Part shown: piece after piece, positions 380 through 61,373 of the stretch | Layout of the letters: the number at the start of each line of letters is the position of its first letter | Position numbering within the stretch: position 1 is the stretch's first letter | Sequence record: OQ411014.1 | Origin: Escherichia phage EJP2 | Length of the DNA stretch: 64,000 nt | Reading direction: 5' to 3' (one strand) | Translations under genes and position numbers: made by a program | The notes under the pieces: model-generated | Database searches by the model: none | Told to the model about the DNA's origin: nothing | Seen by the model: only the letters and a program-made list of their open reading frames with translations

Positions 380-1852
380 ATGCAAAACGTAAATTTCATC
401 CTAAACGCAGATAGTTACAAGCACTCTCATTTACTAATGATGAAAGAAGGTGTTCAAGCTCTTGAATCAAACATCATTGCTCGTAAACCATCTAAATTCA
501 CCAGTCATGTAGTTATGATGGGTCTTCAGATTTTCGTTCAGGAATATCTGGATATCACAATTACTGCGGCTGATATCGATGAAGCAGAGATTGAAACAAA
601 CGAACGTGGTGATGATTTTGACCGCGACTTCTGGGAACACATCGTGAATGTACACAAAGGTAAACTACCTTTACATATCCGTGCTATCCCTGAAGGTACA
701 GTAGTTCCAGTTGGTATGCCGTTGGTTCGCTCCTTCAGTACTGACCCACGTACTATGGTACTCGCTAGTTTCGTCGAAACTCAATTACAACGTGCAATCT
801 GGTTCCAAACTACTGTTGCATCTAATGCTCGCAGTATCAAGGAATTTCTTGCTGATACTATGGAACGTCATGCTGGTCATCGCTTTGTGGATTATCATCT
901 ACATAACTTCGGCTGTCGTGGTGCAAGTTCCTATGAAACAGCAATGCTCGCAGGTGTAGCTCATGCCGCTCTATTCAGTGGCTCTGACTGCCTATTAGCA
1001 AACCGTAGTATCAAATACTACTACAATACTACTAAACCATATGTTAGTAGTGTTATGGCGAGTGAACACAGTGCTACATGTTCTAACTCCGATGCAGACA
1101 AGCGTGATGATTCAGCAATGGCGTTGAAGATGGTTCGCCTATGGGAAAAGAAAGTAGATAAGTTCATTGCTAATGGTTCAGTTGGTGCACCCCCAATTGT
1201 TTCTGTAGTAATCGATACTTATGATGCTTATCGCTTTGTTCGTGAGTTCATCGGTACTCGTCTAAAATCTACAATCGAAGAGATTGCAGCTAAATGTCCA
1301 AGTGCTAAACTAGTAATGCGTCCTGATAGTGGTAATCCACTAACTATGCCAATCGAAATCGTATCTATCCTTATGGAGAAATTCGGTTCAGTACTGAATG
1401 CTAATGGCATGAAAGTACTTCCATCTTTCATTGGTGTTCTTCAGGGCGACGGAGTTTCAGAAAGTTCAATCCGTGAAATCGTCCACAACCTAGAGAAAAA
1501 GAACTACTCTCTAGAGAATCTAATCTTTGGTATGGGTGGTAAAAACTCCCACGTCGAAGGTGGTCGTGATGCATATTCTTTCGCCCAGAAAGGTTGTGCA
1601 CAGCAACTAGCTGATGGTACTTGGGAAGATTTGTTCAAAGATCCTATTACTGACGTTGGGAAAAAATCCCTTCGTGGTCGTGTAACTACTTACTTGTGCA
1701 AAGAAAGTGGGAAGATGATGGCTGAACGAATCGAACTACAAGAAGTAAATCCTTTCTTAGAAGATATGATGGTTGACATTTTTGTAAATGGTGATATCAT
1801 GAATCTAAGCTCTTTTGATGATGTACGTGCTCGTGCGAACAAGGGATTGTAA
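380..1852 (+). CDS. nadV: nicotinamide phosphoribosyltransferase (NadV/NAMPT family)
   Basis: 490 aa; motifs LNADSYKHSH, AIPEGTVVP, FGCRGASS, RPDSGNPL, LQGDGV match the NAMPT family as recalled; RBS aaagagg upstream. Confidence 0.9.
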   Translation: MQNVNFILNADSYKHSHLLMMKEGVQALESNIIARKPSKFTSHVVMMGLQIFVQEYLDITITAADIDEAEIETNERGDDFDRDFWEHIVNVHKGKLPLHIRAIPEGTVVPVGMPLVRSFSTDPRTMVLASFVETQLQRAIWFQTTVASNARSIKEFLADTMERHAGHRFVDYHLHNFGCRGASSYETAMLAGVAHAALFSGSDCLLANRSIKYYYNTTKPYVSSVMASEHSATCSNSDADKRDDSAMALKMVRLWEKKVDKFIANGSVGAPPIVSVVIDTYDAYRFVREFIGTRLKSTIEEIAAKCPSAKLVMRPDSGNPLTMPIEIVSILMEKFGSVLNANGMKVLPSFIGVLQGDGVSESSIREIVHNLEKKNYSLENLIFGMGGKNSHVEGGRDAYSFAQKGCAQQLADGTWEDLFKDPITDVGKKSLRGRVTTYLCKESGKMMAERIELQEVNPFLEDMMVDIFVNGDIMNLSSFDDVRARANKGL

Positions 1853-1895: not shown

Positions 1896-2534
1896 ATGTG
1901 GTCTAAAGTAAAAGATAATCTAGATGCGTACATTATCCCACTACACGATGTGGTATGGCTACGAGATGAAGTACGTAAGGCAATGACCGAAGGTTATGCG
2001 TTTCCAGCAGAAGAAGATGAAATTCAAAAAGATGCATCAGTAGTTTCTGATGAAATGATTATCGGTTATCCAGATCCAGAAAATGAAAATATGTTCATGT
2101 TTGGATTCAAAGATGATGATTGTCTGGACGACCAAAGTATCATTGACCACATTACACATCGCTGTTGGGAAGATATTAGTGAAGCTGGTATTGTTTCATT
2201 TGGTGAAATGGAAAGTTTTTCAGCAGTTGTGTATAATGAAGATGTTCCAAATTTCCGTAAGCACAAGACAGAAGTGGATAACTTCCTAACTCATTTGATT
2301 GGTCGATCTATTGTTAGTGATGAGCCATCATTCCTCAATAACACTGCGGAATGTAAAGAATTCATCTTAGAACGATATGATTATGAAAATATGAAACGTA
2401 CTGCGACGAATAAGTGGGGCAACTTCAATTATCGTTTATTTGAAAATGATGAAGGAGATGTCGTGACAATCGTTACATACAATGCTAAACTGATCTCCTA
2501 CTATAACTTCAGATACAAAGACGAGGATCTATAA
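1896..2534 (+). CDS. hypothetical protein
   Basis: 212-aa ORF, gagg RBS, tight spacing with neighbours; no motif recognised. Confidence 0.5.
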   Translation: MWSKVKDNLDAYIIPLHDVVWLRDEVRKAMTEGYAFPAEEDEIQKDASVVSDEMIIGYPDPENENMFMFGFKDDDCLDDQSIIDHITHRCWEDISEAGIVSFGEMESFSAVVYNEDVPNFRKHKTEVDNFLTHLIGRSIVSDEPSFLNNTAECKEFILERYDYENMKRTATNKWGNFNYRLFENDEGDVVTIVTYNAKLISYYNFRYKDEDL

Positions 2535-2535
2535 A

Positions 2536-2748
2536 ATGGTTTTGACTTATCTTTTCATGTTCGGTATGTACGCAGTAACCACTGGTTGTGCATGGTTCCT
2601 GACTTCAATTACATTCATTGGTTGGGCCAATCGTGAAGGTAAAATCAAATACGGCTTGTGGTTCCGTGAGTTCAGTCCTTTTGTAGTACCACTATGGATT
2701 ACAACTATTGTAATTTATATTCTCATCCCAGTAGTATTCTTGGGTTGA
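2536..2748 (+). CDS. small hydrophobic (membrane) protein
   Basis: 70-aa ORF starting one nt after the upstream stop; two hydrophobic segments. Confidence 0.35.
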   Translation: MVLTYLFMFGMYAVTTGCAWFLTSITFIGWANREGKIKYGLWFREFSPFVVPLWITTIVIYILIPVVFLG

Positions 2749-2788
2749 CATTACAGTACTGTTCAAGATTTTCTAATAAGGATTATAT

Positions 2789-3391
2789 ATGACTTGTATT
2801 ATCGCTTTTACTGATGGTAAATCATCCTTCATCGCAGGTGACAAACTAGGTTCCAACGGCTTTACTAAATCAGTAATGGTTGAACCAAAAGTCTTTGAGA
2901 AAGAGTTTCATCGTGTTAGTACCAATGATGAAGGTACTGTGCGGACGCGTGAAACGATGGCACTCGGTTATACTACGTCATTTCGTATGGGACAACTTCT
3001 GTCTTACAATCTAGTACTGCCTGACCAAGATGCGAATCAATCCTTCAGTCAGTACCTGGTTCAGAAAGTAATTCCACTTATTCGTCATATGTTCAAAGAT
3101 GAATGGGGTGCACGTGATAGCTCACAAGATATTGGTGGTGGTCAGTTCATTATTCTGCATAACCACACTATCTACGAAGTTCAAGGTGACTTCTCAGTAC
3201 TGCAACCTAAGACACAAATTACTGCTGTAGGTTCAGGTACTTACCATGCAATTGCAGCTATGCAAGCACTACAAAGTGTTTCATCTGATACTAAGAAAGA
3301 TCTACTACATTACGTACCAACGATTTTTGATATTGTCAGTACTAATGTAACTTCAGTATCTGCTGAACATGATGTATTGCATTACAAATAA
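2789..3391 (+). CDS. HslV/proteasome-like Ntn-hydrolase peptidase
   Basis: N-terminus MTCIIAFTDGKSSFIAGD parallels HslV MTTIVSVRRNGHVVIAGD (Thr after Met); AVGSGTYHAIAAMQAL parallels HslV IGSGGPYAQAAARAL. Confidence 0.5.
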   Translation: MTCIIAFTDGKSSFIAGDKLGSNGFTKSVMVEPKVFEKEFHRVSTNDEGTVRTRETMALGYTTSFRMGQLLSYNLVLPDQDANQSFSQYLVQKVIPLIRHMFKDEWGARDSSQDIGGGQFIILHNHTIYEVQGDFSVLQPKTQITAVGSGTYHAIAAMQALQSVSSDTKKDLLHYVPTIFDIVSTNVTSVSAEHDVLHYK

Positions 3392-3582
3392 TGGTTGATA
3401 TATTTTTCATTGTAATGATGATGCTTGGTGTATTCGGGTTGATTGCAATTACCCGAATCACTGATAGACCATACACAGATAACATTGAACGCGTTTGTAT
3501 GTTTCTACTAAGTACTATAATGTTGGTTATCGTTGGTGTAGTAGGTTCTATGTTTGCAGAACTAATTCTAATTGCGTACTGA
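3391..3582 (+). CDS. small membrane protein
   Basis: 63-aa hydrophobic ORF, start overlaps upstream stop. Confidence 0.3.
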   Translation: MVDIFFIVMMMLGVFGLIAITRITDRPYTDNIERVCMFLLSTIMLVIVGVVGSMFAELILIAY

Positions 3583-3605
3583 TGTACGCTTTTTAAGGAG
3601 TACTT

Positions 3606-3839
3606 ATGGACTTAGCAGATTTGGTTTATGTTGTATCGTTAGTACTGTACGGTATTTGTATAGTACTGACTATGTTAGAATGGAGTACTTGGAGTGATGG
3701 TTTCAAAGAACTAAATGGTGAGTTTACCTCTAAATACTATGCAATTAGTTATTTTATCATGAAGTTAGGTATGATTGGAATGTATGGTATTTTGGGATAT
3801 CTATTCTACTTCTTACCTGAACATATGAGATTATTTTAG
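3606..3839 (+). CDS. small membrane protein
   Basis: 77-aa ORF with ggag RBS; hydrophobic segments. Confidence 0.35.
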   Translation: MDLADLVYVVSLVLYGICIVLTMLEWSTWSDGFKELNGEFTSKYYAISYFIMKLGMIGMYGILGYLFYFLPEHMRLF

Positions 3840-3849
3840 GAGATATAAA

Positions 3850-4281
3850 ATGGCAGGAAAAGGATATTGCAGCCTAAAACTTGATAAAGCACAAGCAAAG
3901 GAATTGAAACGGATTTTAAAAATCGGTGGCGTTGAATGCTTAGACCCTTCGGATTTGCATTGTACTTTAATGTACGATGAAAGTAATCCTAACATCAAAA
4001 TGCTCAAGAACACAAAGACTTATAAAGCTAAAGTAACTGGTGTTAGTAAATTGGGTGATGCGATTGTATTGGATTTGGAATCCCCTGGCATCAAGAAACG
4101 TCATCAGGAATTGAAGAATGCTGGTTATAAGCACTCATTCCCTGAATTGAAAATTCATATGAGCATCAACTACGATCCAAAAAGTACTGATAAGGATTTA
4201 CTAGAACTCTTTATCAAATTGAAGGGTATTCCTTCAGTACTGATATTTGGTAATGAAAAATTTGAATCTCTAAAGCCGTAA
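3850..4281 (+). CDS. 2H phosphoesterase-family protein (LigT/Acb1-like fold)
   Basis: two H-x-T/S-x motifs (HCTL near residue 37, HMSI near residue 113) at the spacing typical of 2H phosphoesterases; 143 aa. Confidence 0.5.
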   Translation: MAGKGYCSLKLDKAQAKELKRILKIGGVECLDPSDLHCTLMYDESNPNIKMLKNTKTYKAKVTGVSKLGDAIVLDLESPGIKKRHQELKNAGYKHSFPELKIHMSINYDPKSTDKDLLELFIKLKGIPSVLIFGNEKFESLKP

Positions 4282-4291
4282 GGAGTATATA

Positions 4292-5050
4292 ATGGACGTG
4301 AATAAATTTCTTGACAACAAAGGACAAAAGCGTCTGTTAGTACTAACTGGTGCGGGTTTCAGTGCGGAATCTGGAGTTAGTACATTTCGTGATGCAGAAG
4401 ATGCCCTATGGGAAGGTGTGAAGATTAACGATGTATGTAACATTGCGAGCTTAGGCTTTAAGTACGCACAAGTACATGCATTCTACAACACACTAAGAAC
4501 TATCATCAAGGACAAAGAGCCTAACGAAGCACACTATGAAATTAGCGTTATGGAGTCAATGTACGGGGATAACTTCCTACACATGACTGCTAATATCGAT
4601 GATTTATATGAGCGTGCTGGTGGCACTGCTATGCACCTTCATGGCAACATCAAAGAAGTCATTGAGAACTATTCAATGGCACATAACGACTTTACAGTAC
4701 TGGATGTTGGATATGAAGTTTATATTCCAAAGGAAGGTGTATTTGCTAAACCTAATGTAGTATTCATTGGTGAATCAGAGCGTTATGTGAATAACCAGCG
4801 TATTCCGTTGTATGAAGAACGAAATAAAGTACTGGCATCCTTGACAGACTTAGATACCGTTGTTATCATTGGTTCATCGGATACAATCCTGAAGTGGAGT
4901 TCGTTGGTTGGTTTAGGCACACCAGCTTATACCATCAACATCAACACAAGAAAGAATGACACTGACTGGGCGTTCGATAAGAAGATTTACAAGCCAGTAA
5001 CTAAAGCGTTATTGGAATTGAGGGAGTTAGTTCTTACACGGATGGGATAG
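4292..5050 (+). CDS. Sir2-family protein lacking the zinc ribbon
   Basis: GAGFSAESGVSTFR, TANIDDLYERAGG, HLHG, PNVVFIGES, VVIIGSS match sirtuin core motifs; no CxxC pairs after the HG motif. Confidence 0.7.
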   Translation: MDVNKFLDNKGQKRLLVLTGAGFSAESGVSTFRDAEDALWEGVKINDVCNIASLGFKYAQVHAFYNTLRTIIKDKEPNEAHYEISVMESMYGDNFLHMTANIDDLYERAGGTAMHLHGNIKEVIENYSMAHNDFTVLDVGYEVYIPKEGVFAKPNVVFIGESERYVNNQRIPLYEERNKVLASLTDLDTVVIIGSSDTILKWSSLVGLGTPAYTININTRKNDTDWAFDKKIYKPVTKALLELRELVLTRMG

Positions 5051-5059
5051 GAGTGAGTT

Positions 5060-5614
5060 ATGGATTTTACAGAGATACCATTCGGACAACGCAGTGAAAG
5101 ATTTGACTGTGCGTTCGTTTGGATCTACGCTAAGAATTGCACACCATACAAGGATTATCCATATAATGATATTCCTAACGTATCTTTAGTACTGACAGAG
5201 TTACGCTTTGATGGTCTAATGGGTGCGGTTGGTGGAGCAGTTGAGGATGATGATCCTTCATTGGAAGTGGCAGTGCAACGTGAAGCCTTAGAGGAAATAA
5301 ACTTTTCTCTTGACATTACTAATCTGAAACCGTTATTATCATTACGTTCCCCATACGGAGCACATAACCATAGTTTCTCGTACGAAGTACAGTACGATGA
5401 GCTACTAGAGATTCGGAACAACGCATACAAAGGTGCTCACTTCAGTGCTGAAAATGCGGGTGTAAATCTGATTCACGTATGTCGCTATACGAAGGGAAGA
5501 GGGAACGAATGTGGTTACAATAACATTCTTACACAGAATTTTATTGGCACATCCAAACTGGAACTAGAGCGTTTAGTTCATAATGAAAATTTACTAATAA
5601 ATTACCTTGCATAA
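5060..5614 (+). CDS. Nudix-like hydrolase (imperfect Nudix box)
   Basis: GGAVEDDDPSLEVAVQREALEEINF contains REALEE with altered spacing from the canonical Nudix box. Confidence 0.45.
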   Translation: MDFTEIPFGQRSERFDCAFVWIYAKNCTPYKDYPYNDIPNVSLVLTELRFDGLMGAVGGAVEDDDPSLEVAVQREALEEINFSLDITNLKPLLSLRSPYGAHNHSFSYEVQYDELLEIRNNAYKGAHFSAENAGVNLIHVCRYTKGRGNECGYNNILTQNFIGTSKLELERLVHNENLLINYLA

Positions 5615-5624
5615 AGGATAAAAT

Positions 5625-5957
5625 ATGTATAAGATGTTTATAGACGACCTTCGGGATGCAGAGAAGCATTACCCAAATGAAGGATTCATCGTCACAAGGA
5701 CTTACAATGAAGCTGTACAGTACGTACAAGAACATGGTCTACCTAGTTTTGTTTCATTCGACCATGACTTGGGCGACACTGACAGTACTGATGAGAAGAC
5801 TGGATATTCTTTTGCTAAGTTCCTCATCGAGTACATGATTGATAACGATTTGCGGGAACCGTTTGAGTACTTTATTCACAGTGCTAATCCAGTTGGTGCA
5901 GAGAATATCAAACAGTACTTGCAAAATGGGTTCAACTTTATCCAAGGGCAAGCATGA
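5625..5957 (+). CDS. hypothetical protein
   Basis: 110-aa ORF with aaggat RBS. Confidence 0.45.
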   Translation: MYKMFIDDLRDAEKHYPNEGFIVTRTYNEAVQYVQEHGLPSFVSFDHDLGDTDSTDEKTGYSFAKFLIEYMIDNDLREPFEYFIHSANPVGAENIKQYLQNGFNFIQGQA

Positions 5958-6244
5958 AAGTAATAACATTTATTCTGATTTTGATTGTTGTTGTTGGTAT
6001 TCGCCTTAAAATAGCGGAGAACCAATACAACACTGAAAGACTGAATATTACGAAAGAATCTGGAACAGTAGTTGCAACTGGACAATGCAACAAATACACT
6101 TGTGCTTACTCTGTAAAAACCTCTAGTGGTTCTACAGTGAACAGTACTGGTGACACTCCGGTAAGTCTCGGTCAAATCGTATACCGTGAATGCTGGGAAG
6201 AAAGGGTCAGGGGTCCGCGTTGTTACGTAGACTTTAGACCATAA
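5954..6244 (+). CDS. hypothetical protein with N-terminal signal or anchor
   Basis: 96 aa; hydrophobic N-terminus VITFILILIVVVG; ATGA start/stop overlap with upstream gene. Confidence 0.4.
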   Translation: MKVITFILILIVVVGIRLKIAENQYNTERLNITKESGTVVATGQCNKYTCAYSVKTSSGSTVNSTGDTPVSLGQIVYRECWEERVRGPRCYVDFRP

Positions 6245-6269
6245 AACACTATCATGAAAAGGGAATTTT

Positions 6270-7724
6270 ATGAAAAAATATGCTATTGATACAAACGTAC
6301 TTCTAAGCGATCCAAACGCAGCAACCGCTTTCAAAGGTGCTACAGTGGTTCTACCATTTACAGTACTGGAAGAAATGGACTCCATCAAGAGTCGTGGTGT
6401 TGACGTTAGCCGTGATGCACGTGTAGCAATTCGCAATATCAGTAACATCCTGGAAGACGCGTCTCATGAAGAGATTAGTACTACTGGGGTTGATATGTCC
6501 AAACTACATCCACATTTAGATTCCGACAGTCGTCTAATGATTGTTACATCTGAAGAAGCTGAAGCACTTCTACGTGTTGCAGGTATTGATAAGTCCGATG
6601 CTGAACTTACAAAAGTTGCTACACTAATGAACAGTACTGTACCGGATGACAAGATTATTCTTGTTGCTCTAGCTACAGAATCAGTACTGGTTACTCGTGA
6701 TATCAACATGCGTATCAAAGCTATGGCTTATGGTGTTGAAGTTCAGGACTATCGTAGTGATGTTACTATTTCCGATTCTGACCTACTACATATTGGGAAC
6801 CACAAACTAGAGTTTTCGTTCTGGGATACCATTGCGGATCGTGGTTTAGAAGTTTTCAGTACTAAAGAAGGTCGTAACACTTATCAACTAATTGCTAAAG
6901 ATGCAATTCAGGATCTACTACCAGAAAATCTATGCGTTGGTGACTATCTATATGATGACACTGATTTGCTAATGGTATATGATGGAGAAGGTGATCGTGA
7001 GTTCTCTGATGGTGAAGTTGATGACACAGTGTACTCCGTGTTCATTGATGTTGGTCAACACAGTGCAATGCGTACTAAGATTTGGGATATCAAAGCTAAG
7101 AACGTGAAACAAGCAATGGCAATCAACAGTATTCTTGACCCTAATGTTCACTTGACAGTACTGTTAGGTTCTGCGGGTACAGGTAAGACTTTGATTACTC
7201 TAGCATGTGCACTAGAACTAACATTAGAGAAGCGTCAGTACGATAAAGTTATTTTCTCTAAAACCCAAGACTCACAGTTTGATGAAATTGGTTTCTTACC
7301 AGGAACCGAAATGGAAAAAATGCTTCCGAATTGTGGACCTGCACTGGATGCATTGGAATTCCTTCACAAAGATGATGCTAACCCTCAAGGTTCAATTGAA
7401 GAAATCATCAAACGTAATGTTGTACAATTCAAAGCACTGAACTTTATTCGTGGACGTTCGTTTACCAATACAATTCTAGTTGTTGATGAATTCCAAAACA
7501 TTACTCCGGCTCAAGCTAAAACTATCTTGACACGGGCAGGAATGAACTGTAAAGTTATCATCATGGGTAACTTAGCACAGATTGATAGTAAGTTTATCAG
7601 TTCTGTAAACAGCGGTTTGACCTATGTAGTTGAGAAGTTCAAAGATTGGGAAGGTTGTCGTATCATCGAACTCGAAGGTGTTGTACGTTCTGCACTAGCT
7701 GAATTCGCTGAAGAAAATATGTAA
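6270..7724 (+). CDS. phoH: PIN-domain / PhoH-like ATPase fusion
   Basis: N-terminal YAIDTNVLLSDP (PIN-like); Walker A LLGSAGTGKT; Walker B-like VVDEFQNI. Confidence 0.8.
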   Translation: MKKYAIDTNVLLSDPNAATAFKGATVVLPFTVLEEMDSIKSRGVDVSRDARVAIRNISNILEDASHEEISTTGVDMSKLHPHLDSDSRLMIVTSEEAEALLRVAGIDKSDAELTKVATLMNSTVPDDKIILVALATESVLVTRDINMRIKAMAYGVEVQDYRSDVTISDSDLLHIGNHKLEFSFWDTIADRGLEVFSTKEGRNTYQLIAKDAIQDLLPENLCVGDYLYDDTDLLMVYDGEGDREFSDGEVDDTVYSVFIDVGQHSAMRTKIWDIKAKNVKQAMAINSILDPNVHLTVLLGSAGTGKTLITLACALELTLEKRQYDKVIFSKTQDSQFDEIGFLPGTEMEKMLPNCGPALDALEFLHKDDANPQGSIEEIIKRNVVQFKALNFIRGRSFTNTILVVDEFQNITPAQAKTILTRAGMNCKVIIMGNLAQIDSKFISSVNSGLTYVVEKFKDWEGCRIIELEGVVRSALAEFAEENM

Positions 7725-7731
7725 TATATTG

Positions 7732-7758
7732 GGGGAGTTTCAATACTCCCCATTCATT
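7732..7758 (+). terminator. hairpin ggggagt/actcccc with interrupted T-tract
   Basis: inverted repeat directly after the phoH stop. Confidence 0.45.
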
Positions 7759-9119: not shown

Positions 9120-9410
9120 ATGCAATACAGACCACTATACGACCATGTTCTTGCTAAACAGATTGTTCATGAAGCTAAGAGTTCTTTTGGTATCATCCTG
9201 AACAGTACTGGTGTAGAAGAGACAACTACTGCTACTGTTGTTGCAGTTGGTACTGGGTCGAAGAATAGCCTAGGGAAAGTTATTCCAGTTGGTGTAAACG
9301 TAGGTGATGTGGTATCATTCAGTCCTGATGCTGCTGTTCATCGTGTTACACTAGATGGTACTGAATATCTTGTTATGCGTAAAGATTGCATCTTAGGCGT
9401 ACAGGAATAA
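9120..9410 (+). CDS. GroES-like co-chaperonin (Cpn10)
   Basis: RPLYDHVLAK, AVGTG, VNVGDVV, ILGVQE align with E. coli GroES RPLHDRVIVK, AVGNG, VKVGDIV, ILAIVE. Confidence 0.75.
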   Translation: MQYRPLYDHVLAKQIVHEAKSSFGIILNSTGVEETTTATVVAVGTGSKNSLGKVIPVGVNVGDVVSFSPDAAVHRVTLDGTEYLVMRKDCILGVQE

Positions 9411-12760: not shown

Positions 12761-13318
12761 ATGACTATTATCGTGAATTTAGTAGGTGGTCCGTGCTGTG
12801 GAAAAAGTACTACTGCTGCTGGACTATTCAGTACTATGAAACTTCAAACAACTAACAAGGTTGAACTTGTTACTGAAGTTATCAAAGACCATGTGTACGA
12901 TGAGAACAAAGGTGCAATGCAAGACCAGGTTCTTCTTACTGCTGAACAGAATCACCGATTCAAACGTTTAGATGGTAAAGTTGATTTTGTAATCTCGGAC
13001 GCTTCCCTTTTGAACGCAATCGTGTATAATCAGTTCTACAATCAAAACAAAGATATCAGTACTGAACTATCTCGTAAACTATTCGAGAAGTACGATAACG
13101 TTGTATTCTTCCTTCCACGTAAGCCTCAATATGATGCATACGGACGTACACAGTCAGAAGAAGATGCACGTTTCATCGATGAACTTTTCGAGAGTGTGTT
13201 CTGGGAATATTCTATTCCTTTCATTGATATGCGTGAATATACTCACGATGTTCTTCCAGAAAAGATTCTTGAGAAACTTCAAGAGAAATTTGGCAATACT
13301 GTAACCCTACGAGGCTAA
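12761..13318 (+). CDS. P-loop NTPase/kinase (AAA_28/NadR-like)
   Basis: Walker A GGPCCGKST at N-terminus; 185 aa. Confidence 0.5.
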   Translation: MTIIVNLVGGPCCGKSTTAAGLFSTMKLQTTNKVELVTEVIKDHVYDENKGAMQDQVLLTAEQNHRFKRLDGKVDFVISDASLLNAIVYNQFYNQNKDISTELSRKLFEKYDNVVFFLPRKPQYDAYGRTQSEEDARFIDELFESVFWEYSIPFIDMREYTHDVLPEKILEKLQEKFGNTVTLRG

Positions 13319-14526: not shown

Positions 14527-16332
14527 ATGAAACATGATAAACTATACGCAGATGTGAACGATTTCTTGAGTCAGAGTAATCCTGATATTCTACAAGAGAA
14601 TGCTAACAAAGATTCCAAAATGGTGAATACTCACAGGGATTTACTCGCTGGGATACTTTCCAAACACTTCGCAGAGGAAGTTATCTCAGATGATTTGATG
14701 AAGTGGCATACTGAAGGTTATGGTCATATTCATGATTTAGATTACTACATTAGCCCGTTGACTAACTGTTGTTTAGTGAACTATCAAGAGATGCTAGAGA
14801 ATGGTTTCAAATTGGGTAATGCACAAGTTGGTTCCCCTAATAGCATTGGTGTAGCGTGTACAGTACTGACACAGATAGTACTGGCAGTTTCAGCTTCACA
14901 GTACGGTGGACAGTCCTTAGCTCACATTGATGCCGGATTAGCTCCGTATGTTCGGAAATCTCACGAACGTCTATTGAAGGAACAAGAAAAGTATAATCTA
15001 CCAGATGAATACGTTACTTCTGCTCTTGAGAAGGAAGTGTATGATTCTATGCAAGCAGTACTGTACCAAGTGAATACCATCACAAGTTCCAATGGACAAA
15101 CGCCTTTTATATCTATTAGCTTAGGTTTGGACACTTCTGTGTATGGTCGGATGATTACTTCTGCGTACTTGAAAGTTCATGAGAAAGGTCTAGGTAAAGA
15201 TGGTACTACTCCTGTATTCCCTAAAGTTATTTTCTTTTTGGATGAAGGTACTAACTTCAAGCCTAATGACCCAAATTACGATCTAAAGGTACAAGCGATG
15301 CAATGTGCATCAAAACGCATCTATCCTGACTTTGTTTCAGTACCGAAGAATAAAGAAGTAACTGGCAGTACAAGTACAGCAGTAACACCTATGGGTTGTC
15401 GTTCTTTCCTGTCACAATGGAAAAACGATGACGGTACTGAACAATACAACGGTCGCTTCAACTTAGGTGTAGTATCCATCAACTTACCGCTAATTGCTCT
15501 TGAAAGTCCGTCAGAAGAGGATTTCTATAGTAATGTGCGTCATCATATGGATATTGCATTCAGAGCACAGATGAACCGTGTAGAGCGTCTAAAGAGCATG
15601 AAAGCGAAGCAGAACCCTACACTTTTCATGGAAGGGGCAATTGCTCGTCTAAAAGCAGATGACACTATCGAAGAGCTATTTTATGATGGTTATGCGAGTA
15701 TTAGTATTGGATATGTCGGTTTAGCTGAATGTTCAGACATTTTACGTTCAGGACTGGATAAAGATTTTTGTGTAGAAATCCTGACCTTTATGAAAAATAT
15801 TTGTAATTCCTATACTGAAAACTCCAAAATCGCTTTTAGTCTGTACGGTACACCTGCGGAGTCATTATGCTACAAATTTGCGAAATGTATCGAGAAAAAG
15901 CATCCTTCAGTACTGAAACGTGATTTTATCACTAACTCATTCCATCAACCAGTTTGGGTGGATAGTACTCCATTTGAGAAGTTCAAATACGAAGAAGGGT
16001 TCTCTTTGCTCAGTAATGGTGGTAATATCAGTTACGTTGAAACTCCTAACCTTGCACAGAATATGAAGGCTCTAGAAGGTATTATTGACTATGCTTATCA
16101 CAGAATCCATTATTTTGGAATCAACCAGCCTGTTGACAGATGTTATGCTTGTCAGTTCAATGGTGAGTTCAAAGTAGATAAAAATGGGTTTCATTGTCCA
16201 CAATGTAATAACCGAGACGAAACGAAGATGTCTGTCATTAGACGTGTTTCTGGGTACTTGAGTTCTCCTAATAGCCGTCCTTTCAACAAAGGTAAGCAAC
16301 AGGAAGTAATTGTAAGGGTAAAACATAAATGA
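14527..16332 (+). CDS. nrdD: anaerobic ribonucleoside-triphosphate reductase
   Basis: 601 aa; C-terminal RVSGYLSSPNSRPFNKGKQQE glycyl-radical-type tail; immediately followed by radical-SAM activase. Confidence 0.85.
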   Translation: MKHDKLYADVNDFLSQSNPDILQENANKDSKMVNTHRDLLAGILSKHFAEEVISDDLMKWHTEGYGHIHDLDYYISPLTNCCLVNYQEMLENGFKLGNAQVGSPNSIGVACTVLTQIVLAVSASQYGGQSLAHIDAGLAPYVRKSHERLLKEQEKYNLPDEYVTSALEKEVYDSMQAVLYQVNTITSSNGQTPFISISLGLDTSVYGRMITSAYLKVHEKGLGKDGTTPVFPKVIFFLDEGTNFKPNDPNYDLKVQAMQCASKRIYPDFVSVPKNKEVTGSTSTAVTPMGCRSFLSQWKNDDGTEQYNGRFNLGVVSINLPLIALESPSEEDFYSNVRHHMDIAFRAQMNRVERLKSMKAKQNPTLFMEGAIARLKADDTIEELFYDGYASISIGYVGLAECSDILRSGLDKDFCVEILTFMKNICNSYTENSKIAFSLYGTPAESLCYKFAKCIEKKHPSVLKRDFITNSFHQPVWVDSTPFEKFKYEEGFSLLSNGGNISYVETPNLAQNMKALEGIIDYAYHRIHYFGINQPVDRCYACQFNGEFKVDKNGFHCPQCNNRDETKMSVIRRVSGYLSSPNSRPFNKGKQQEVIVRVKHK

Positions 16333-16799
16333 ACTACCAAACTATCGTAATTGATGATATGGTGAACGGTGAGGGCATTCGCTGCTCTCTGTTCGTCAGT
16401 GGGTGCAGTCATGGCTGTGAAGGGTGTTTCAACGAAAAAGCGTGGGATTATCGCTCTGGATTTGAATACACTACCAGTACTGAAGAATGTATCCTAGAAG
16501 AGCTTCAGAAGGATTATGTGAGTGGTTTATCGCTATTAGGTGGTGATCCACTCATGCCGAAGAACATTATTGAGGTAATTGCTCTTTGTAAGAAAGTAAA
16601 GGAACAATTCCCAAATAAGACCATTTGGTGCTGGAGTGGGTACACTTTAGAGGAAATCCAAGAGAATCATGCTAAGGACGTATTACAGTACTTAGATGTT
16701 CTTGTGGATGGAAAGTTCGACTTAGAGAAGTATGACAGTACTGTTCAGTTCAGGGGTTCGAGTAATCAACGAATTCTGTATAAAGGTACTGACTTTTGA
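16329..16799 (+). CDS. nrdG: anaerobic RNR activating protein (radical SAM)
   Basis: CSHGCEGC radical-SAM cysteine cluster; 156 aa; ATGA overlap with nrdD. Confidence 0.8.
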   Translation: MNYQTIVIDDMVNGEGIRCSLFVSGCSHGCEGCFNEKAWDYRSGFEYTTSTEECILEELQKDYVSGLSLLGGDPLMPKNIIEVIALCKKVKEQFPNKTIWCWSGYTLEEIQENHAKDVLQYLDVLVDGKFDLEKYDSTVQFRGSSNQRILYKGTDF

Positions 16800-23333: not shown

Positions 23334-23721
23334 AATATATGACATCATTAAAACTCTTAAAACTTGTAAGAGAGTAACATTATCTGAAAAAGTTTACTGC
23401 GGTTTAAATGATAAAAAGTGTATCATGTTCGATTGTATAGATGATGGTGAATCCAGCATTAGTATTGCTAGTCCTAAGAATCCTAATGGTGATTTTATCT
23501 TCTGTACAGTTACTGATGAACTTGAATTTGTACTCGTCAAGAGTGATGGTGCACAATCTGAAATCTTAGACTTGAGTACTGAAGATAGATTCTTTCAACG
23601 AAGTTTACTCTTTGACTTATCATTAACCTATGATGAGTATCAATCAGTACTTCATAATTTCAACAAATTTTATAACGGACTAATCAGTACTGTTATAATC
23701 TATTCAACCGAGGTCATATAA
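23320..23721 (+). CDS. hypothetical protein
   Basis: 133-aa ORF overlapping neighbours by a few nt. Confidence 0.45.
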   Translation: MQEHKIYDIIKTLKTCKRVTLSEKVYCGLNDKKCIMFDCIDDGESSISIASPKNPNGDFIFCTVTDELEFVLVKSDGAQSEILDLSTEDRFFQRSLLFDLSLTYDEYQSVLHNFNKFYNGLISTVIIYSTEVI

Positions 23722-24968
23722 TGTCAAAAAATATGCTCGAAAATATCATCGTAAAACACTACGCTGGTAGTATCGCTTATGGTACAAATACTCCCTTATC
23801 AGATGTTGATTTCCGTGGAATCTTTATGGCTCCAAAGGAATTCATCTTGTCTCCGTTCGTAAACGTAGGGGAAGCATCTGATTCAAAAGAAGAAGATACT
23901 AAATTCTACGAACTCAATAAGTTCATGAAACTAAATGTCGATGCGAACCCGAATATCCTCGAAACACTATGGGTCGATGATGAACACATCGTTGAAAGTA
24001 CTGAAATGTACCAACATCTTCGCAAGCACAGAAGTGAACTACTAAGTAATAAGATTGCATTTACTTATACTGGATTCGCATATAACCAAGTTCACCGCAT
24101 GAGCAACCATAATGGCTGGATGGATAAAGAGAGAATTGCTGAACGCAGACTCAATGAAATCATCGAAAAACATCCTTGTATTGAAGTGAAAGAGTGGATG
24201 TACGAATATTTCCCTCATTATGTCATTGACCGGATTGACTTCTCTAATGTAAAAGGTTATAGTGATGATGTTGATTTGGACTTGGATAAGTTCTTGCGTG
24301 ATAGTTCTCTGCAACTGATCAGTACTAAATCCTTAGCACAGCATCACTTCGTGCGTTTAGTACATAATTACTTACCACAGAAAGTACTTGACCGTGATTT
24401 CAACTTAGCTCATTTCAATACGAATCATGAACTAATTCACTACGGTGATAATATCTTTGCAGTAGTTCCAACTCAGGGGAAATCGAAAGTACTTTCAGTA
24501 CATAACGATTTAGTTTGGGATTCAAAGAAAGAACGTACTCCTGAAGAACTAAAAGTACTTCCATCTTTGATTGTGAAATTCAATCGCAAAGAATATGAAG
24601 AACTGAATGATAAACGCAAGCACTATCACAAGTGGAAAGAGAACCGTAACAGTATTCGTGCTGAACTGGAGTCAAAGAATGGCTTCGATACTAAGCACGC
24701 AATGCACGTGGTTCGTTTATTACGTACAGCAAAAGAAGCACTGTTGACTGGTGTCATCAACGTCAAACGTCCTGATGCGGAAGAATTACTTGCAATCCGT
24801 AATGGTGCTTGGACATATGAAGAAATGATGAAGTACTTTGAATCTGAATCTAAATTAGTAATGAACTTAGGTAAAACATCAAAAGTACTTCCATCGTCCC
24901 CAAACCGTAAACTAGCAACTCAATTAGTACTAGACTTACGTGAGATGCATTGGAAACAAGGAAAATAA
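23721..24968 (+). CDS. Pol-beta superfamily nucleotidyltransferase (PF10127-like)
   Basis: N-terminal AGSIAYGTNTPLSDVDFRGIF matches the GS...G...SDxDxRG signature; 415 aa. Confidence 0.5.
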   Translation: MSKNMLENIIVKHYAGSIAYGTNTPLSDVDFRGIFMAPKEFILSPFVNVGEASDSKEEDTKFYELNKFMKLNVDANPNILETLWVDDEHIVESTEMYQHLRKHRSELLSNKIAFTYTGFAYNQVHRMSNHNGWMDKERIAERRLNEIIEKHPCIEVKEWMYEYFPHYVIDRIDFSNVKGYSDDVDLDLDKFLRDSSLQLISTKSLAQHHFVRLVHNYLPQKVLDRDFNLAHFNTNHELIHYGDNIFAVVPTQGKSKVLSVHNDLVWDSKKERTPEELKVLPSLIVKFNRKEYEELNDKRKHYHKWKENRNSIRAELESKNGFDTKHAMHVVRLLRTAKEALLTGVINVKRPDAEELLAIRNGAWTYEEMMKYFESESKLVMNLGKTSKVLPSSPNRKLATQLVLDLREMHWKQGK

Positions 24969-33441: not shown

Positions 33442-34071
33442 ATGACAACTCACGTTAGGTATTATATTGCATATAATGGAAGACCAGTTCGTTCTATTGG
33501 ATTAGATCTTGAGCCAGTAATGTCTGTACAGACTAATCTATACTTCAGTACTGAAGAAGAAGCAGACTCTTTCATTATGACTAGGATTGCAACTGCGTCC
33601 ACTACACTTTATCATATTCATTTTGATTGTATTGATAAGTACTCAATCGTCAAAGAAATTGTTCAGTTGGAACCGTGCAGTACTAAAACTAATTATATGC
33701 GAAACTATACTCTAACTTGGTTGCGATTACTCGACCAGGATATCTGTACTGATTCTATGATTTCCACTACTATACGTGCGTTCGTCATGCGTGGGTTTAG
33801 TACATCAGGATTGGATTTAGAAGAAGTGAAAAACTTGATTTTGGGTAATCCAAAACTTCAAAAAACCATTGACAAACTTATTCCAAAGCATATAATCTCT
33901 AATATTGAAAATTACATGCAAGATGGTTTAGTCAATGCTCCGGTGGAAGAGCTTGAATTCTTGAATCTAACAATTTCAGATGAAATGAAATTTGATCTTG
34001 ACTTCGAAGAACTCTTCCCTTACAATAAGTTCAAACCAACAAAATGGGAAAATCATGGAACTAGTAACTGA
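33442..34071 (+). CDS. hypothetical protein
   Basis: 209-aa ORF. Confidence 0.45.
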   Translation: MTTHVRYYIAYNGRPVRSIGLDLEPVMSVQTNLYFSTEEEADSFIMTRIATASTTLYHIHFDCIDKYSIVKEIVQLEPCSTKTNYMRNYTLTWLRLLDQDICTDSMISTTIRAFVMRGFSTSGLDLEEVKNLILGNPKLQKTIDKLIPKHIISNIENYMQDGLVNAPVEELEFLNLTISDEMKFDLDFEELFPYNKFKPTKWENHGTSN

Positions 34072-35308
34072 AGGTCGCAAACTCGTAACAATTCGTAAAA
34101 TCAATGCAATTGATGCAATTGAAGGTGCAGATCTGATTGTCAAAGCAACTGTTGACGGTTGGGATGTAGTTGTGAAGAAAGATGAATTCAACGTTGGGGA
34201 TTACTGTGTATTCTTCGAAATCGATTCATTCCTTCCAGTACAGACACCACAATTCGCATTCTTGGCGGGTTCAGGCTGTAAACTCGATGAACAGAATGTA
34301 GAACGTTTCCGTCTACGTACTCGTAAACTTCGCGGGGTAGTCTCTCAAGGCTTGGCTCTACCAGTATCTCTATTTGAGGCAGTACTGGAAGCTATTGACG
34401 AAGCTGGTGGTCATCACCCTGACTCGTACACTACAACGGCACGTGAAGAACTCCTAGTGAGTCTAGAGGCGAATCGTGAAGGCATTGAGCAATTCCTCAA
34501 TGTAACCAAATACGAGCGTCCTGATGAGCGTAATGGCGGTACTGGTGCATCTAAGTGCAAAGCTGCTGGTAACTTCCCTATCGTCATTCCTAAGACTGAT
34601 GAAGACCGTATTCAGAACGTAATGGGTAAGTACTCTCAGACTATGAAAGGTGTTGCATTCCGTAAATCACTGAAACTGGATGGTTCTAGCCAGACAATTG
34701 CATTCATTAGCAATCCTGATTTCTTTGTAGATAAAGTTGATGAAGAAGTCCGTGCATGGAATGAAGAGACTCAAGAACTTGAAGTTGTTGAAGTGAAGCC
34801 ATACCCGTTCCAATGGGAAGATGGTCAGGTAGCAGTATGTTCTCGCAATCTTGCGTTGAAATTTGATGCTGAATCTCACTTCTGGAAAGCAGCACTGAAA
34901 GATGATATTCCAGCACGTCTGAAAGAGTACTGTGTTCGTAATGACCGCCAACTAGCACTACAAGGCGAAGTAATGGGTCCTGGTATCCAAGGGAACCGTG
35001 AAGAACTGACCGAACATCAATTCTACGTATTCCGTATTTGGGATATTGATAATAAATGTTTCCTTGATGATGGTGATTTCTTGACACTATCTGCACTACT
35101 GGGATTGACTACAGTACCGCAAGGTGATATCGTGTACTTCTTCGATGAATACACTTCTATCAAAGAAGCATTGGCATCTGCTGACCACGCATCTATCAAG
35201 CATAAGATCGCGGAAGGCGATGTGTTCAAAAGTGTATCTAAAGTGAATGGTGTTACTGTACACTTCAAGGTAATCAACAACAAATTCTTGCTCAAATGTG
35301 AGGACTAA
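34055..35308 (+). CDS. ATP-dependent RNA ligase-like nucleotidyltransferase
   Basis: start set at ATG 34055; candidate motif I lysine in SLKLDGSS (KxDG) about 170 aa from the N-terminus, preceded by an N-terminal domain. Confidence 0.5.
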   Translation: MELVTEGRKLVTIRKINAIDAIEGADLIVKATVDGWDVVVKKDEFNVGDYCVFFEIDSFLPVQTPQFAFLAGSGCKLDEQNVERFRLRTRKLRGVVSQGLALPVSLFEAVLEAIDEAGGHHPDSYTTTAREELLVSLEANREGIEQFLNVTKYERPDERNGGTGASKCKAAGNFPIVIPKTDEDRIQNVMGKYSQTMKGVAFRKSLKLDGSSQTIAFISNPDFFVDKVDEEVRAWNEETQELEVVEVKPYPFQWEDGQVAVCSRNLALKFDAESHFWKAALKDDIPARLKEYCVRNDRQLALQGEVMGPGIQGNREELTEHQFYVFRIWDIDNKCFLDDGDFLTLSALLGLTTVPQGDIVYFFDEYTSIKEALASADHASIKHKIAEGDVFKSVSKVNGVTVHFKVINNKFLLKCED

Positions 35309-39891: not shown

Positions 39892-41001
39892 ATGAAAAAG
39901 TATTTGGTTGGTGGTTTTGTACGCGATAAGCTACTTGGCTTACGTCCTAAAGACAAAGATTATGTCTTGGTAGGAGCGACCCCGCGTGATATTCAGTACT
40001 TAAAAAGTATTGGATATGAGCAGGTTGGTGCAGACTTCCCTGTGTTCTTGGATAAGGACGGCAATGAGCACGCACTTGCCCGTACTGAACGCAAGGTGTC
40101 TGATGGCTATAATGGCTTTGAAGTGAATACACAAGGTGTAACGCTTCAGGAAGACTTGTATCGTCGTGATTTGACCATCAATGCGATTGCCTTTGACCCA
40201 CAGTTAAAGGTACACGTAGACCCATATGGTGGCAAAGAAGACCTAAAGAACAAAGTACTGCGACATGTATCTGAACATTTTGAAGAAGATCCAGTACGTA
40301 TTCTGCGTATCGCTCGTTTCAGTGCACGTTATTCGGACTTTACAGTACATGAAAGTACTGAATCGTTGATTCGCCGTATGATCAATCGTGGCGATATTTC
40401 TGAATTGACTAAAGAGCGAGTGTACGTAGAATTCGAGAAAGCATTCTCCGAAGAAGAGCCAGTTATCTTCCTGGAGAAGCTATCCAAATGGGGAGCCATG
40501 AGTAAGTTGATTCCTGGTAATCCTGAAAGTACTTACAAGACTATTGAATACATTAGTTCCAATTGTACTTTAGCGTATAAGGATTTTTACTTGTGGGCTG
40601 AACTAATTGGTTCTAATGAAGTACAAAAAGATGGAGTCTTTGGTCAGGTCAAGCTACCATCGCGTTACTCTAAGTTCAGTGCGTATGTATGCAAGCACGC
40701 GGATAGTATCAAGAATTTCCGTAAGAGCACCCCAGAAGAAATGGTAAATATTCTTACTGAGATGAGCGTAAAGAACAACGGTGGTGAAGAGTACTTGTAC
40801 AAAGTACTGGAATACTTTATCCTACGTAAAGAGATTGATTTGGACTTAGAAGATTTGATTATTCGAGTTTATGATCGCTTTGAGAATACGGTCATTGGTA
40901 ATATTGATCAGATGCTTAAAGATGGAACTATCACTTCACGTGAAATTCCTTCTTTTGTGAAAGAGAAGCGAATCGCTGAGGTGGAAAAAATCTTCAAATA
41001 A
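39892..41001 (+). CDS. CCA-adding tRNA nucleotidyltransferase / poly(A) polymerase family
   Basis: GGFVRDKLLG, DKDYV and RRDLTINA head-domain motifs; 369 aa. Confidence 0.8.
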   Translation: MKKYLVGGFVRDKLLGLRPKDKDYVLVGATPRDIQYLKSIGYEQVGADFPVFLDKDGNEHALARTERKVSDGYNGFEVNTQGVTLQEDLYRRDLTINAIAFDPQLKVHVDPYGGKEDLKNKVLRHVSEHFEEDPVRILRIARFSARYSDFTVHESTESLIRRMINRGDISELTKERVYVEFEKAFSEEEPVIFLEKLSKWGAMSKLIPGNPESTYKTIEYISSNCTLAYKDFYLWAELIGSNEVQKDGVFGQVKLPSRYSKFSAYVCKHADSIKNFRKSTPEEMVNILTEMSVKNNGGEEYLYKVLEYFILRKEIDLDLEDLIIRVYDRFENTVIGNIDQMLKDGTITSREIPSFVKEKRIAEVEKIFK

Positions 41002-41002
41002 A

Positions 41003-41032
41003 TTGAGATATTTTCGAAAAAAGTGATATATT
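41003..41032 (+). promoter_or_regulatory. sigma70-like promoter TTGAGA-N18-TATATT with TGA
   Basis: same architecture as the family, weaker -10. Confidence 0.4.
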
Positions 41033-41064
41033 ATAAGTATCTGAGATATGTAAGAGATAAAAAT

Positions 41065-41742
41065 ATGCGATATACATGCGGGATAATATTTTATCGAAAC
41101 GGTCAGATACTTGTAGGTCACACGACTGGTCAGAGTCATTGGGATTTACCGAAAGGTAAGACTGAAGGTTCTGAGACATTCAAGGAAGCGGCAGTTCGTG
41201 AATGCTATGAAGAAACTGGATACAGTATTGATGAACGAGATTTACTGTACTTAGGTGATGTATCATACAGAAAGGGAAAGCGTTTAGTACTGTTCTTTTA
41301 CACAGCCAAGACGAAACCAATTGCTGAAGAGTTGCAATGTATCAGTACTTACACGAATAAGTACGGTATTGTACGTCCAGAGTTGGACAAATTCAAGTAC
41401 ATAGACATTGAGGACTGTGAACTCTACTTGACTGAACGGATGTGTGATAGTATAATCAAAGCTATTACACAATTTGATAAAAAGACAAATAAAAAGGAAG
41501 ATAATATGAAAGTTGTAATTTATGGTCGTAAAGCTGGTTGTAAGTGGTGTACTACTGCTAAAGAAGTTTGTGAAACTAACTCAATTGATTTTGATTTCAT
41601 TGATTTAGATGAAGCTGGTATTGATGGTGCTAAACTCGCTGAAATTTGTGGCACTCCAGTACGTACTGTTCCACAAATTTTCGTTGACGATCAACACATT
41701 GGTGGTTGTACTGAGTTTATTTCGCACCTATCCAAAATGTAA
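41065..41742 (+). CDS. Nudix hydrolase fused in frame to a glutaredoxin/NrdH-like domain
   Basis: perfect Nudix box GKTEGSETFKEAAVRECYEETG; C-terminal MKVVIYGRKAGCKWC (CxxC) preceded by internal RBS aggaag at 41494 and ATG 41506, no stop between the domains. Confidence 0.6.
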   Translation: MRYTCGIIFYRNGQILVGHTTGQSHWDLPKGKTEGSETFKEAAVRECYEETGYSIDERDLLYLGDVSYRKGKRLVLFFYTAKTKPIAEELQCISTYTNKYGIVRPELDKFKYIDIEDCELYLTERMCDSIIKAITQFDKKTNKKEDNMKVVIYGRKAGCKWCTTAKEVCETNSIDFDFIDLDEAGIDGAKLAEICGTPVRTVPQIFVDDQHIGGCTEFISHLSKM

Positions 41743-44468: not shown

Positions 44469-44557
44469 AGTACTTTTACAGTACTGAAGTTTCAATACAA
44501 TACTAGAGATGCACTATAATGGTGTCATCTCTTTTCTTTTATATAAAGGAGTTATAT

Positions 44558-61107: not shown

Positions 61108-61373
61108 TGATGAGTGATGAGTGTGATAATTGCGATTACCGTTATGAATCAGGCCACAGAGACGGATATGAGCAAGGTTGTAAAGACTCCAGTTCGGAAA
61201 ATTACGAACAAGGTTATAAAGATGCAAAAGACGAAGGTGCTAGAGAATTAGATGATCAATTAGCGAACATGAGTTCGAACTTCTCTAGTGTAATACGAGA
61301 TTTAGTTGCAAGGAATAAGCAACTACAGCAAGAAATTTATGAGATAAGGAAATCCAATGCAACAGCTTCATGA
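61104..61373 (+). CDS. hypothetical protein
   Basis: 89-aa ORF, ATGA overlap. Confidence 0.4.
   Translation: MMMSDECDNCDYRYESGHRDGYEQGCKDSSSENYEQGYKDAKDEGARELDDQLANMSSNFSSVIRDLVARNKQLQQEIYEIRKSNATAS

Follow-up and report, generated by a model that had tools for sequence, protein, structure and literature searches.

A lidless Acb1-family 2H phosphodiesterase of Escherichia phage EJP2 as a candidate anti-CBASS enzyme

Introduction

A 143-amino-acid (143-aa) protein is encoded at positions 3850-4281 of a 64,000-nucleotide stretch of Escherichia phage EJP2 (sequence record OQ411014.1), and the whole of that stretch is referred to here as the window. The protein carries two H-x-[TS] motifs of the kind found in 2H phosphodiesterases, and the locus raises the question of whether such an enzyme would degrade a signal of host defence or heal RNA ends, two roles that an earlier note made from the sequence had left side by side. 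We find that the protein is a member of the Acb1 family. By analogy with its characterized relatives, it is probably a signal-degrading counter-defence phosphodiesterase of a GAP32/CBB-like jumbo phage, directed against CBASS, a form of antiphage signalling that relies on cyclic oligonucleotides.

The 2H gene and its motifs

The gene and its signature motifs are as follows.

3838..3842, + strand: AGGAG ribosome-binding site, 7 nt before the ATG (direct reading of the sequence)
3850..4281, + strand: coding sequence, 143 aa, Acb1-family 2H phosphodiesterase (lidless core)
3958..3969, + strand: first catalytic motif H37-C-T39-L, residues 37-40, equivalent to T4 Acb1 H44/T46 in alignments
4156..4167, + strand: second catalytic motif H103-M-S105-I, residues 103-106, equivalent to T4 Acb1 H113/T115 in alignments, with Thr replaced by Ser

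The open reading frame (ORF) and its HCTL and HMSI motifs on the + strand stand as the earlier note had described them; the two motif histidines are, by count, 66 residues apart and not "about 76" as it had stated. The short N-terminus of the protein is real, since an in-frame stop lies upstream at 3826-3828 and there is no alternative start between this stop and the ATG. At least two H-x-[TS] motifs occur in 5.3% of composition-preserving shuffles of the protein, and a pair at a spacing of 50-90 residues in 1.8%. The motif pair by itself is thus weak evidence, and the case for a 2H protein rests on the profile matches and the fold. We also considered a capsid-targeting or protease-cleavage signal at A16-K17-E18, which was dropped because a cut at this place would take away strand 1 together with Y6.

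Family assignment and fold

The protein matches the Pfam family Acb1 (PF23474) with 63.8 bits (E 1.8e-17; the cut-off is 27 bits), and the match spans positions 4-137 of the 144 in the profile. The same family is present in 66 of 66 homologues. Among the LigT-type Pfam families, PF13563 (2_5_RNA_ligase2) stays below its threshold with 19.2 vs 27 bits and PF02834 (LigT_PEase) gives no match; a search of NCBIfam with the protein returned no match and no model. The best match by sequence among solved structures is FBB1 Acb1 (7T26, E 3.8e-4), and hhalign aligns a 37-member clade profile with the Acb1 enzymes of T4, FBB1 and KVP40 and with PDE-9 of phage BCSR5 at a probability of 98.9% (E 1.1e-17). 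The family is large, since an exhaustive profile search found 2441 cluster representatives at E <= 1e-3; within the 64-kb window this gene is its only member.

The predicted structure agrees with this assignment. An AlphaFold2 model built from a 37-sequence alignment has six strands and three helices, with a predicted local distance difference test score (pLDDT) of 92.9 and a predicted template modelling score (pTM) of 0.85, and shows the compact 2H fold that is expected of Acb1, in which six central strands shape a U-shaped pocket. When the model was compared with the Protein Data Bank (PDB) by Foldseek, the template modelling (TM) score was 0.81 for PDE-9, 0.66 for FBB1 Acb1 and about 0.55 for LigT-type enzymes, and the core of the protein aligns with PDE-9 over 139 residues. 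The nearest solved structures are therefore cyclic-dinucleotide phosphodiesterases and not RNA-end-healing enzymes. In a viral structure library the best matches are proteins of fHe-Yen9-04 (TM 0.96), pEt-SU and RisingSun, all named 'Anti-CBASS protein Acb1' in UniProt. The 2H fold suspected in the earlier note is thus present in the model, and between the two kinds of enzyme that the note had offered, Acb1 is upheld by the PF23474 match, the nearest phosphodiesterase structures and a virion-borne orthologue (below), and LigT is not, its profiles having failed.

The names in public records do not reflect this placement uniformly. The protein matches PHROG 755 (E 2e-29), a family that bears the name 'RNA ligase', and this misleading label has spread from PHROG 755 widely through GenBank and RefSeq. 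Members of the family are also recorded as 'structural protein', 'prohead protease', 'phosphoesterase', 'nuclease | immune evasion protein' and 'hypothetical'. The UniProt name of the orthologues is already "Anti-CBASS protein Acb1", assigned by a family rule. A jumbo-phage gene labelled 'RNA ligase', 'structural protein' or 'hypothetical' in GenBank is now placed in a characterized counter-defence family.

Virion association and domain fusions

Published mass spectrometry of cesium chloride-purified virions of phage CBB lists CBB_118, an orthologue 56% identical to the window protein, at 60.4% coverage from 7 unique peptides. The CBB virion table contains neither CBB_115 (NAMPT) nor CBB_119-123, which include Sir2, and the Nudix neighbour is missing from it too. 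These data fit an enzyme that is present at DNA entry and not a partner of the cytoplasmic Sir2 and Nudix enzymes. Homologues in CBB, XbC2, the pEa_SNUABM phages, RisingSun and pEt-SU carry a '(putative) structural protein' label in GenBank, which for CBB comes from mass spectrometry. The 'putative structural protein' labels of the pEa_SNUABM phages are homology-based, and the virion association therefore comes from CBB alone; the text of the RisingSun lysate proteomics that we retrieved does not mention gp120.

Domain fusions point in the same direction. Members of the family are fused to portal, Mu F and DarA_N domains, to the Thoeris inhibitor Tad5 and to a GNAT domain, and such fusions have likewise been read as packaged counter-signalling enzymes (Iyer et al. 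2022, PMC9503650).

Active site and proposed mechanism

Beyond the two motifs, four elements of the protein bear on what it could bind.

3865..3867, + strand: Y6, aligned with Y12 of T4 Acb1, which stacks on a base; Y or F throughout the clade
4138..4140, + strand: F97, aligned with F107 of T4 Acb1, which stacks on a base; Y, F or H in the clade
4174..4230, + strand: segment between Y108 and P128, residues 109-127, 19 aa, with a helix at 114-123
4255..4281, + strand: short C-terminus, 7 residues past the invariant E136, without an LxLxW lid

In T4/FBB1 Acb1 the catalytic residues are H44, T46, H113 and T115; Y12, W74, F107 and W147 stack on bases, E141 reads the adenine N6, and residues 145-152 form a C-terminal lid (Hobbs et al. 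2022, PMC9117128). We scored residue conservation in 62 clade sequences and 110 other representatives. All 62 clade sequences have the equivalents of H37 and T39, as do 108 of the 110 others. In the second motif H103 is invariant, and S105, invariant in the clade, is Ser in 93 and Thr in 17 of the other representatives, so that Ser in place of Thr is the majority state of the wider family. Acb1-specific positions shared with T4 are conserved as well, namely R84-H85 (T4 R94-H95), Y108 (Y118) and E136 (E138).

This pattern bears on whether the protein could be a structural or accessory component of the virion that has kept the 2H fold and lost catalysis, as the GenBank labels on the CBB, XbC2, pEa_SNUABM, RisingSun and pEt-SU homologues might suggest. 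In the 62 clade sequences and more than 100 distant ones, both histidines, T39, S105, R84 and E136 show little or no variation. An active enzyme would be expected to look like this, and we regard a non-catalytic role as highly improbable.

By analogy with T4/FBB1 Acb1 and PDE-9, we infer what the window enzyme cleaves and releases, that it is injected into the host and that it counteracts CBASS. It would be a soluble, metal-independent 2H phosphodiesterase holding a cyclic di- or trinucleotide CBASS signal, such as 3'3'-cyclic GMP-AMP (3'3'-cGAMP) or cyclic tri-AMP (cAAA), in a U-shaped six-stranded cleft, with Y6 and F97 stacking on one base of the signal. H37 and H103, aided by T39 and S105, would provide acid-base catalysis, in which a 2'-OH attacks the 3'-5' phosphodiester to form a 2',3'-cyclic phosphate intermediate that is then hydrolysed. 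The ring would thereby be linearized and the CBASS effector of the host would stay off. Probably it travels in the virion, which would deliver it, or make it available, at the very start of infection. In keeping with this proposal, 3'3'-cGAMP is cleaved by every Acb1-group enzyme that has been assayed (T4 and nine homologues, PDE-8 and PDE-9).

A number of observations weigh against this proposal. Pairwise identity of the protein to the assayed enzymes is just 22-28%, and the literature search found no assay for any member of the GAP32-like clade. The position of T4 W74 is taken by V65 or G69, depending on the alignment used, neither of them aromatic, and the equivalent of W147 is absent because the tail is missing, which leaves two of the four base-stacking aromatics without an aromatic counterpart. 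E139 does align with T4 E141, but this position is not conserved across the clade (G 29, E 10, K 10). The clade has neither the C-terminal lid of the T4/FBB1 type nor the N-terminal lid of the PDE-9 type, and removal of the lid from T4 Acb1 left it inactive in a Panoptes assay, with no triggering (Doherty et al. 2025, 10.1101/2025.08.21.671373). In the same work the 2H phosphodiesterase groups differed in specificity, and two groups cleaved 0 of 18 compounds. Abundant contaminants can appear in virion proteomics. Finally, the 2H gene adjoins a Sir2-Nudix-cREC-PIN/PhoH block (below), and this adjacency is conserved down to 43% identity in its lineage.

Both ends of the protein are short across the clade. 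After E136 there are 7 residues here (clade median 6) vs 13-14 in T4-like enzymes, and before Y6 there are 5 (clade median 5) vs 11-12 in T4-like and about 15 in PDE-9-like enzymes. The Y108-P128 segment is longer, with 19 aa in the clade vs 9-14 aa in T4, FBB1 and KVP40, and the PDE-9 segment is similar to that of the clade. The clade is thus a bare core, equivalent to PDE-9 minus its N-terminal lid, and any lid is also missing in about a third of the close relatives of the clade. PDE-9 lacking residues 1-15 still degraded 3'3'-cGAMP and degraded 2'3'-cyclic di-AMP (2'3'-c-di-AMP) poorly, and specificity was found to be set by the core and not by the lid (Doherty et al. 2025, 10.1101/2025.08.21.671373).

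The altered pocket could also mean that an active 2H enzyme here acts on a small nucleotide outside CBASS, such as cyclic tetra- or hexa-adenylate (cA4/cA6, the type III CRISPR signals), 2',3'-cyclic nucleoside monophosphates (2',3'-cNMPs), 2'-5' oligoadenylates or another messenger, in an anti-signalling or a metabolic role. Substrate ranges vary widely among 2H groups, some of which cleave 0 of 18 known messengers, and a protein that has neither a lid nor equivalents of W74 and W147, and in whose clade E141 is not conserved, points to a change in how the second nucleotide is recognized. Nevertheless, the closest structures and all assayed group-3 enzymes cleave 3'3'-cGAMP, and the core, which sets specificity according to Doherty et al., aligns here with PDE-9 over 139 residues. 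We consider such a substrate distinctly unlikely.

Relatives and gene neighbourhood

The window is GAP32/CBB/Hallingskeid-like jumbo-phage DNA. A megablast search of 4 kb around the 2H gene against 50,697 phage records gave no match; at the protein level the best match is in Erwinia phage Hallingskeid (366 kb) at 75%, followed by GAP32, CBB, BF, fHe-Yen9 and SE_PL at 49-57%. Related jumbo phages infect Erwinia, Pectobacterium, Cronobacter and Salmonella and are candidates for biocontrol, so that their counter-defence repertoire bears on host range. The genes around the 2H gene are listed below.

380..1852, + strand: NAMPT (nicotinamide phosphoribosyltransferase), with NAMPT_N and NAPRTase domains
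1896-3839: variable stretch
4292-5050, + strand: Sir2
5060-5614, + strand: Nudt16-like Nudix
5625-5957, + strand: cREC
5954-6244, + strand: small membrane protein
6270-7724, + strand: PIN+PhoH

One 8-kb stretch thus combines NAD+ rebuilding through NAMPT, a predicted cyclic-nucleotide phosphodiesterase and the Sir2-Nudix-cREC-PIN/PhoH block. In this setting the 2H enzyme could instead be the cyclic-phosphate-opening step of a sirtuin-centred, NAD+-dependent RNA repair, as predicted for Serratia phage BF (Iyer et al. 2022). It would open the 2',3'-cyclic phosphate of tRNAs that anticodon nucleases of the host had cut, or linearize ADP-ribose 1''-2'' cyclic phosphate, and Sir2, Nudix and cREC would handle the phosphate and ADP-ribose by-products. 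The published prediction names sirtuin, 2H, Nudix, cREC and PIN (PMC9503650, section 3.7.3), the same gene set as in the window, and in an earlier survey its authors' group had interpreted the 2H enzymes of jumbo phages as specialized for 2',3'-cyclic phosphates.

The gene order speaks for such a coupling. The genes from 2H through PIN/PhoH lie on one strand with tight spacing and no strong terminator-like hairpin within 3590-7732, and Hallingskeid, GAP32, a Logan contig that is 99% identical and two metagenomic relatives with 43-46% identity all retain the order NMNAT/Nudix-NAMPT-variable-2H-Sir2-Nudix-cREC-PIN/PhoH. An open, lidless cleft with one base-stacking pair could accept a polymer end. 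An RlaP-family protein, an RNA ligase and a CCA-type nucleotidyltransferase are encoded in the window too. Promoter-like sites are not enriched around the 2H gene (35 vs 31.3 +/- 5.7 in shuffles), so that the case for a shared transcription unit goes no further than the lack of strong terminators.

The distribution of the genes speaks against it. RaK2 keeps NMNAT-NAMPT-Sir2-Nudix-cREC-membrane-PhoH and PBECO4 keeps Sir2 through PhoH, and yet a search of the 14-kb region in these two phages found no 2H gene, no remnant and no other Pfam-detectable 2H. Among Escherichia phage records, cREC as a query finds 32, and the 2H protein no more than 4 even when E <= 0.01 is allowed. The other two sirtuin configurations described by Iyer et al. 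are also without 2H, and in GAP32, CBB and the sequence L009 small ORFs separate the 2H gene from Sir2. Homologues at 32-39% identity in N1M2, RisingSun, PS2 and L011 have unrelated neighbours and no Sir2 block. Conserved 2H-Sir2 adjacency is therefore limited to one syntenic lineage, and the 2H gene, in its variable slot, behaves like an accessory that is separable from the block.

Biochemistry and localization add to this. Sequence and fold place the protein with Acb1 and not with LigT. The product of Acb1 is a 3'-phosphate, whereas the proposed sirtuin step needs a 2'-phosphate, a mismatch that would apply to the window protein by extension. An orthologue is found in virions where its Sir2, Nudix and NAMPT neighbours are not reported. 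The earlier note had suggested RNA repair together with the ligase and the CCA enzyme of the window, but these genes and that of RlaP lie 20-36 kb downstream, the 2H gene has no operonic link to an RNA ligase or polynucleotide kinase, and the neighbourhood gives that version no support. The note had left out the context that matters, namely NAMPT and the Sir2-Nudix-cREC-PIN/PhoH block next to the 2H gene. Taken together, we regard a part in RNA repair as unlikely and continue to favour degradation of a CBASS signal.

A further possibility, tentative and rather unlikely, is that the GAP32-like clade represents an Acb1 core that lacks a lid by nature, is carried in virions and has shifted specificity, acting either on CBASS signals with 2'3'-c-di-AMP spared, or on RNA 2',3'-cyclic-phosphate ends (RNA>p) or ADP-ribose cyclic phosphate (ADPr>p). 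If 2'3'-c-di-AMP is spared, decoy systems such as Panoptes would not be triggered, as with the lid-deleted PDE-9 of Doherty et al. If the substrate is RNA>p or ADPr>p, handled with the adjacent Sir2-Nudix-cREC genes, this would be the first Acb1-family member in NAD+-dependent RNA repair. The locus bears on whether an Acb1 core can work without a lid, whether delivery in the virion precedes host signalling, and whether the RNA-repair prediction holds for this neighbourhood. The Sir2-to-PhoH block, whose function is predicted only, looks like the more open question of the region.

Part of this picture is already known, since the Acb1 name stands on the UniProt orthologues and the neighbourhood is in print (Iyer et al. 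2022, PMC9503650). In the literature searched we did not find the lidlessness of the clade, the link between the CBB virion entry and Acb1, or the argument from the natural 'deletion' in RaK2 and PBECO4.

The surrounding genes show additional features. An NMNAT+Nudix gene (labelled 'cytidyltransferase') lies 0.5-1.5 kb upstream of NAMPT in Hallingskeid, GAP32, RaK2 and the sequences L009 and L010. NAMPT together with NMNAT makes up the NARP2 pathway, which has been shown to beat NAD+-depleting defences. Very likely the phage carries this NAD+-reconstitution pathway and the start of the window falls between the NMNAT and NAMPT genes. The slot at 1896-3839 encodes a protein of 212 aa (phrog_36508), a peptidase-like protein of the HslV family (2789-3391) and, with 63-77 aa each, three small hydrophobic ORFs that appear membrane-protein-like from their sequences. 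Its content is wholly different in Hallingskeid, GAP32, L009 and L010 and partly different in L014, which has a 99%-identical 2H gene; a hypervariable slot of this kind between NAMPT and 2H is a pattern typical of accessory and counter-defence hot spots. The Sir2/Nudix/cREC/membrane/PIN+PhoH block is common to Rak2-like jumbo phages, including RaK2 and PBECO4; GAP32 and BF have its Nudix and cREC parts joined in a fusion.

Comparison with characterized enzymes

Acb1 of T4 (gene 57B) and of Erwinia phage FBB1 (PDB 7T26/7T27) belongs to the same Pfam family, shares the catalytic His pair and Thr and is similar in size (152 vs 143 aa). It differs in its second motif, which is HxT there and HxS here, and is 23-28% identical to the window protein. 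The Acb1 genes of T4, FBB1 and KVP40 neighbour 57A and a deoxynucleoside monophosphate (dNMP) kinase, whereas the window gene has other neighbours. PDE-9 of Burkholderia phage BCSR5 (PDB 9Q2G/9Q2Y), at 22% identity, resembles the window protein in its short C-terminus and in having a helix behind the second motif. It differs in having a 15-residue N-terminal lid, which is absent from the window protein, whose chain begins about 13 residues later, and in keeping a Trp, in 'TIWQDH', that matches T4 W74 in 'EVWKTQ' when the sequences are read by eye. LigT/ThpR-type RNA 2',3'-cyclic phosphodiesterases (E. coli LigT, PDB 5LDM) share the 2H fold and the HxT/S pair and are larger, at 170-190 aa.

Within the clade, the orthologues CBB_118 and GAP32_118 and those of Serratia phage BF and Yersinia phage fHe-Yen9-04 are 54-57% identical and occupy the same syntenic position; they are 148 aa long, with a 5-6-residue insertion in a beta-hairpin relative to the window protein. 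The list of 75 curated viral 2H phosphodiesterases of Doherty et al. contains the distant relatives AH04_67, pTD1 gp030, V07 and PaBG and also EJP02_129 of E. coli jumbo phage EJP2; we found no GAP32-like member in it. GAP32, CBB, BF, fHe-Yen9-04 and 121Q were not found in the supplement files of Hobbs 2022 that were searched.

Other genes in the window

Several further genes of RNA and nucleotide metabolism are present. An RlaP-family nucleotidyltransferase is encoded at 23721-24968, an RNA ligase with a PHA02142 OB-fold domain at 33992-35308, and a CCA-adding/poly(A)-polymerase-type enzyme at 39892-41001, directly followed by a Nudix-glutaredoxin fusion (41023-41742). No tRNA genes were found in the window. 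The anaerobic ribonucleotide reductase NrdD (546 bits) and then a radical-SAM activase (Fer4_12) span 14527-16799, and thymidylate synthase is at 61357-62289. A dNMP kinase (44519-45202) lies beside the tail sheath gene (45286-47931); Acb1 is within two genes of dNMP kinase in T4, FBB1 and KVP40, and the two are 40 kb apart in the window. An AAA_28 domain protein (69 bits) is encoded at 12761-13318, 9 kb from NAMPT. We take AAA_28 to be the kinase family of the NadR ribosylnicotinamide kinase, and on that assumption the product could be a third component of NAD+ salvage.

A GroES/Cpn10 co-chaperonin (70 bits) is at 9120-9410. Towards the other end of the window, a DUF2201 putative metallopeptidase with a VWA-like domain (57841-59253) is preceded by a 443-aa ORF (56449-57780) that has no Pfam match.

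One of the distant homologues lies near a Macro-domain gene. The sequence L011 (ENA contig ERZ25071132) encodes at 6001-6654 a 217-aa Acb1-family homologue, P0066, with a 65-residue N-terminal extension and an identity to the window protein of 32% by BLASTP and 29% in an alignment. The Macro-domain gene (L011 4232-4681) lies 1.3 kb from P0066 on the opposite strand, so that here too, in another phage background, an Acb1-type enzyme is paired with a gene for ADP-ribose processing.

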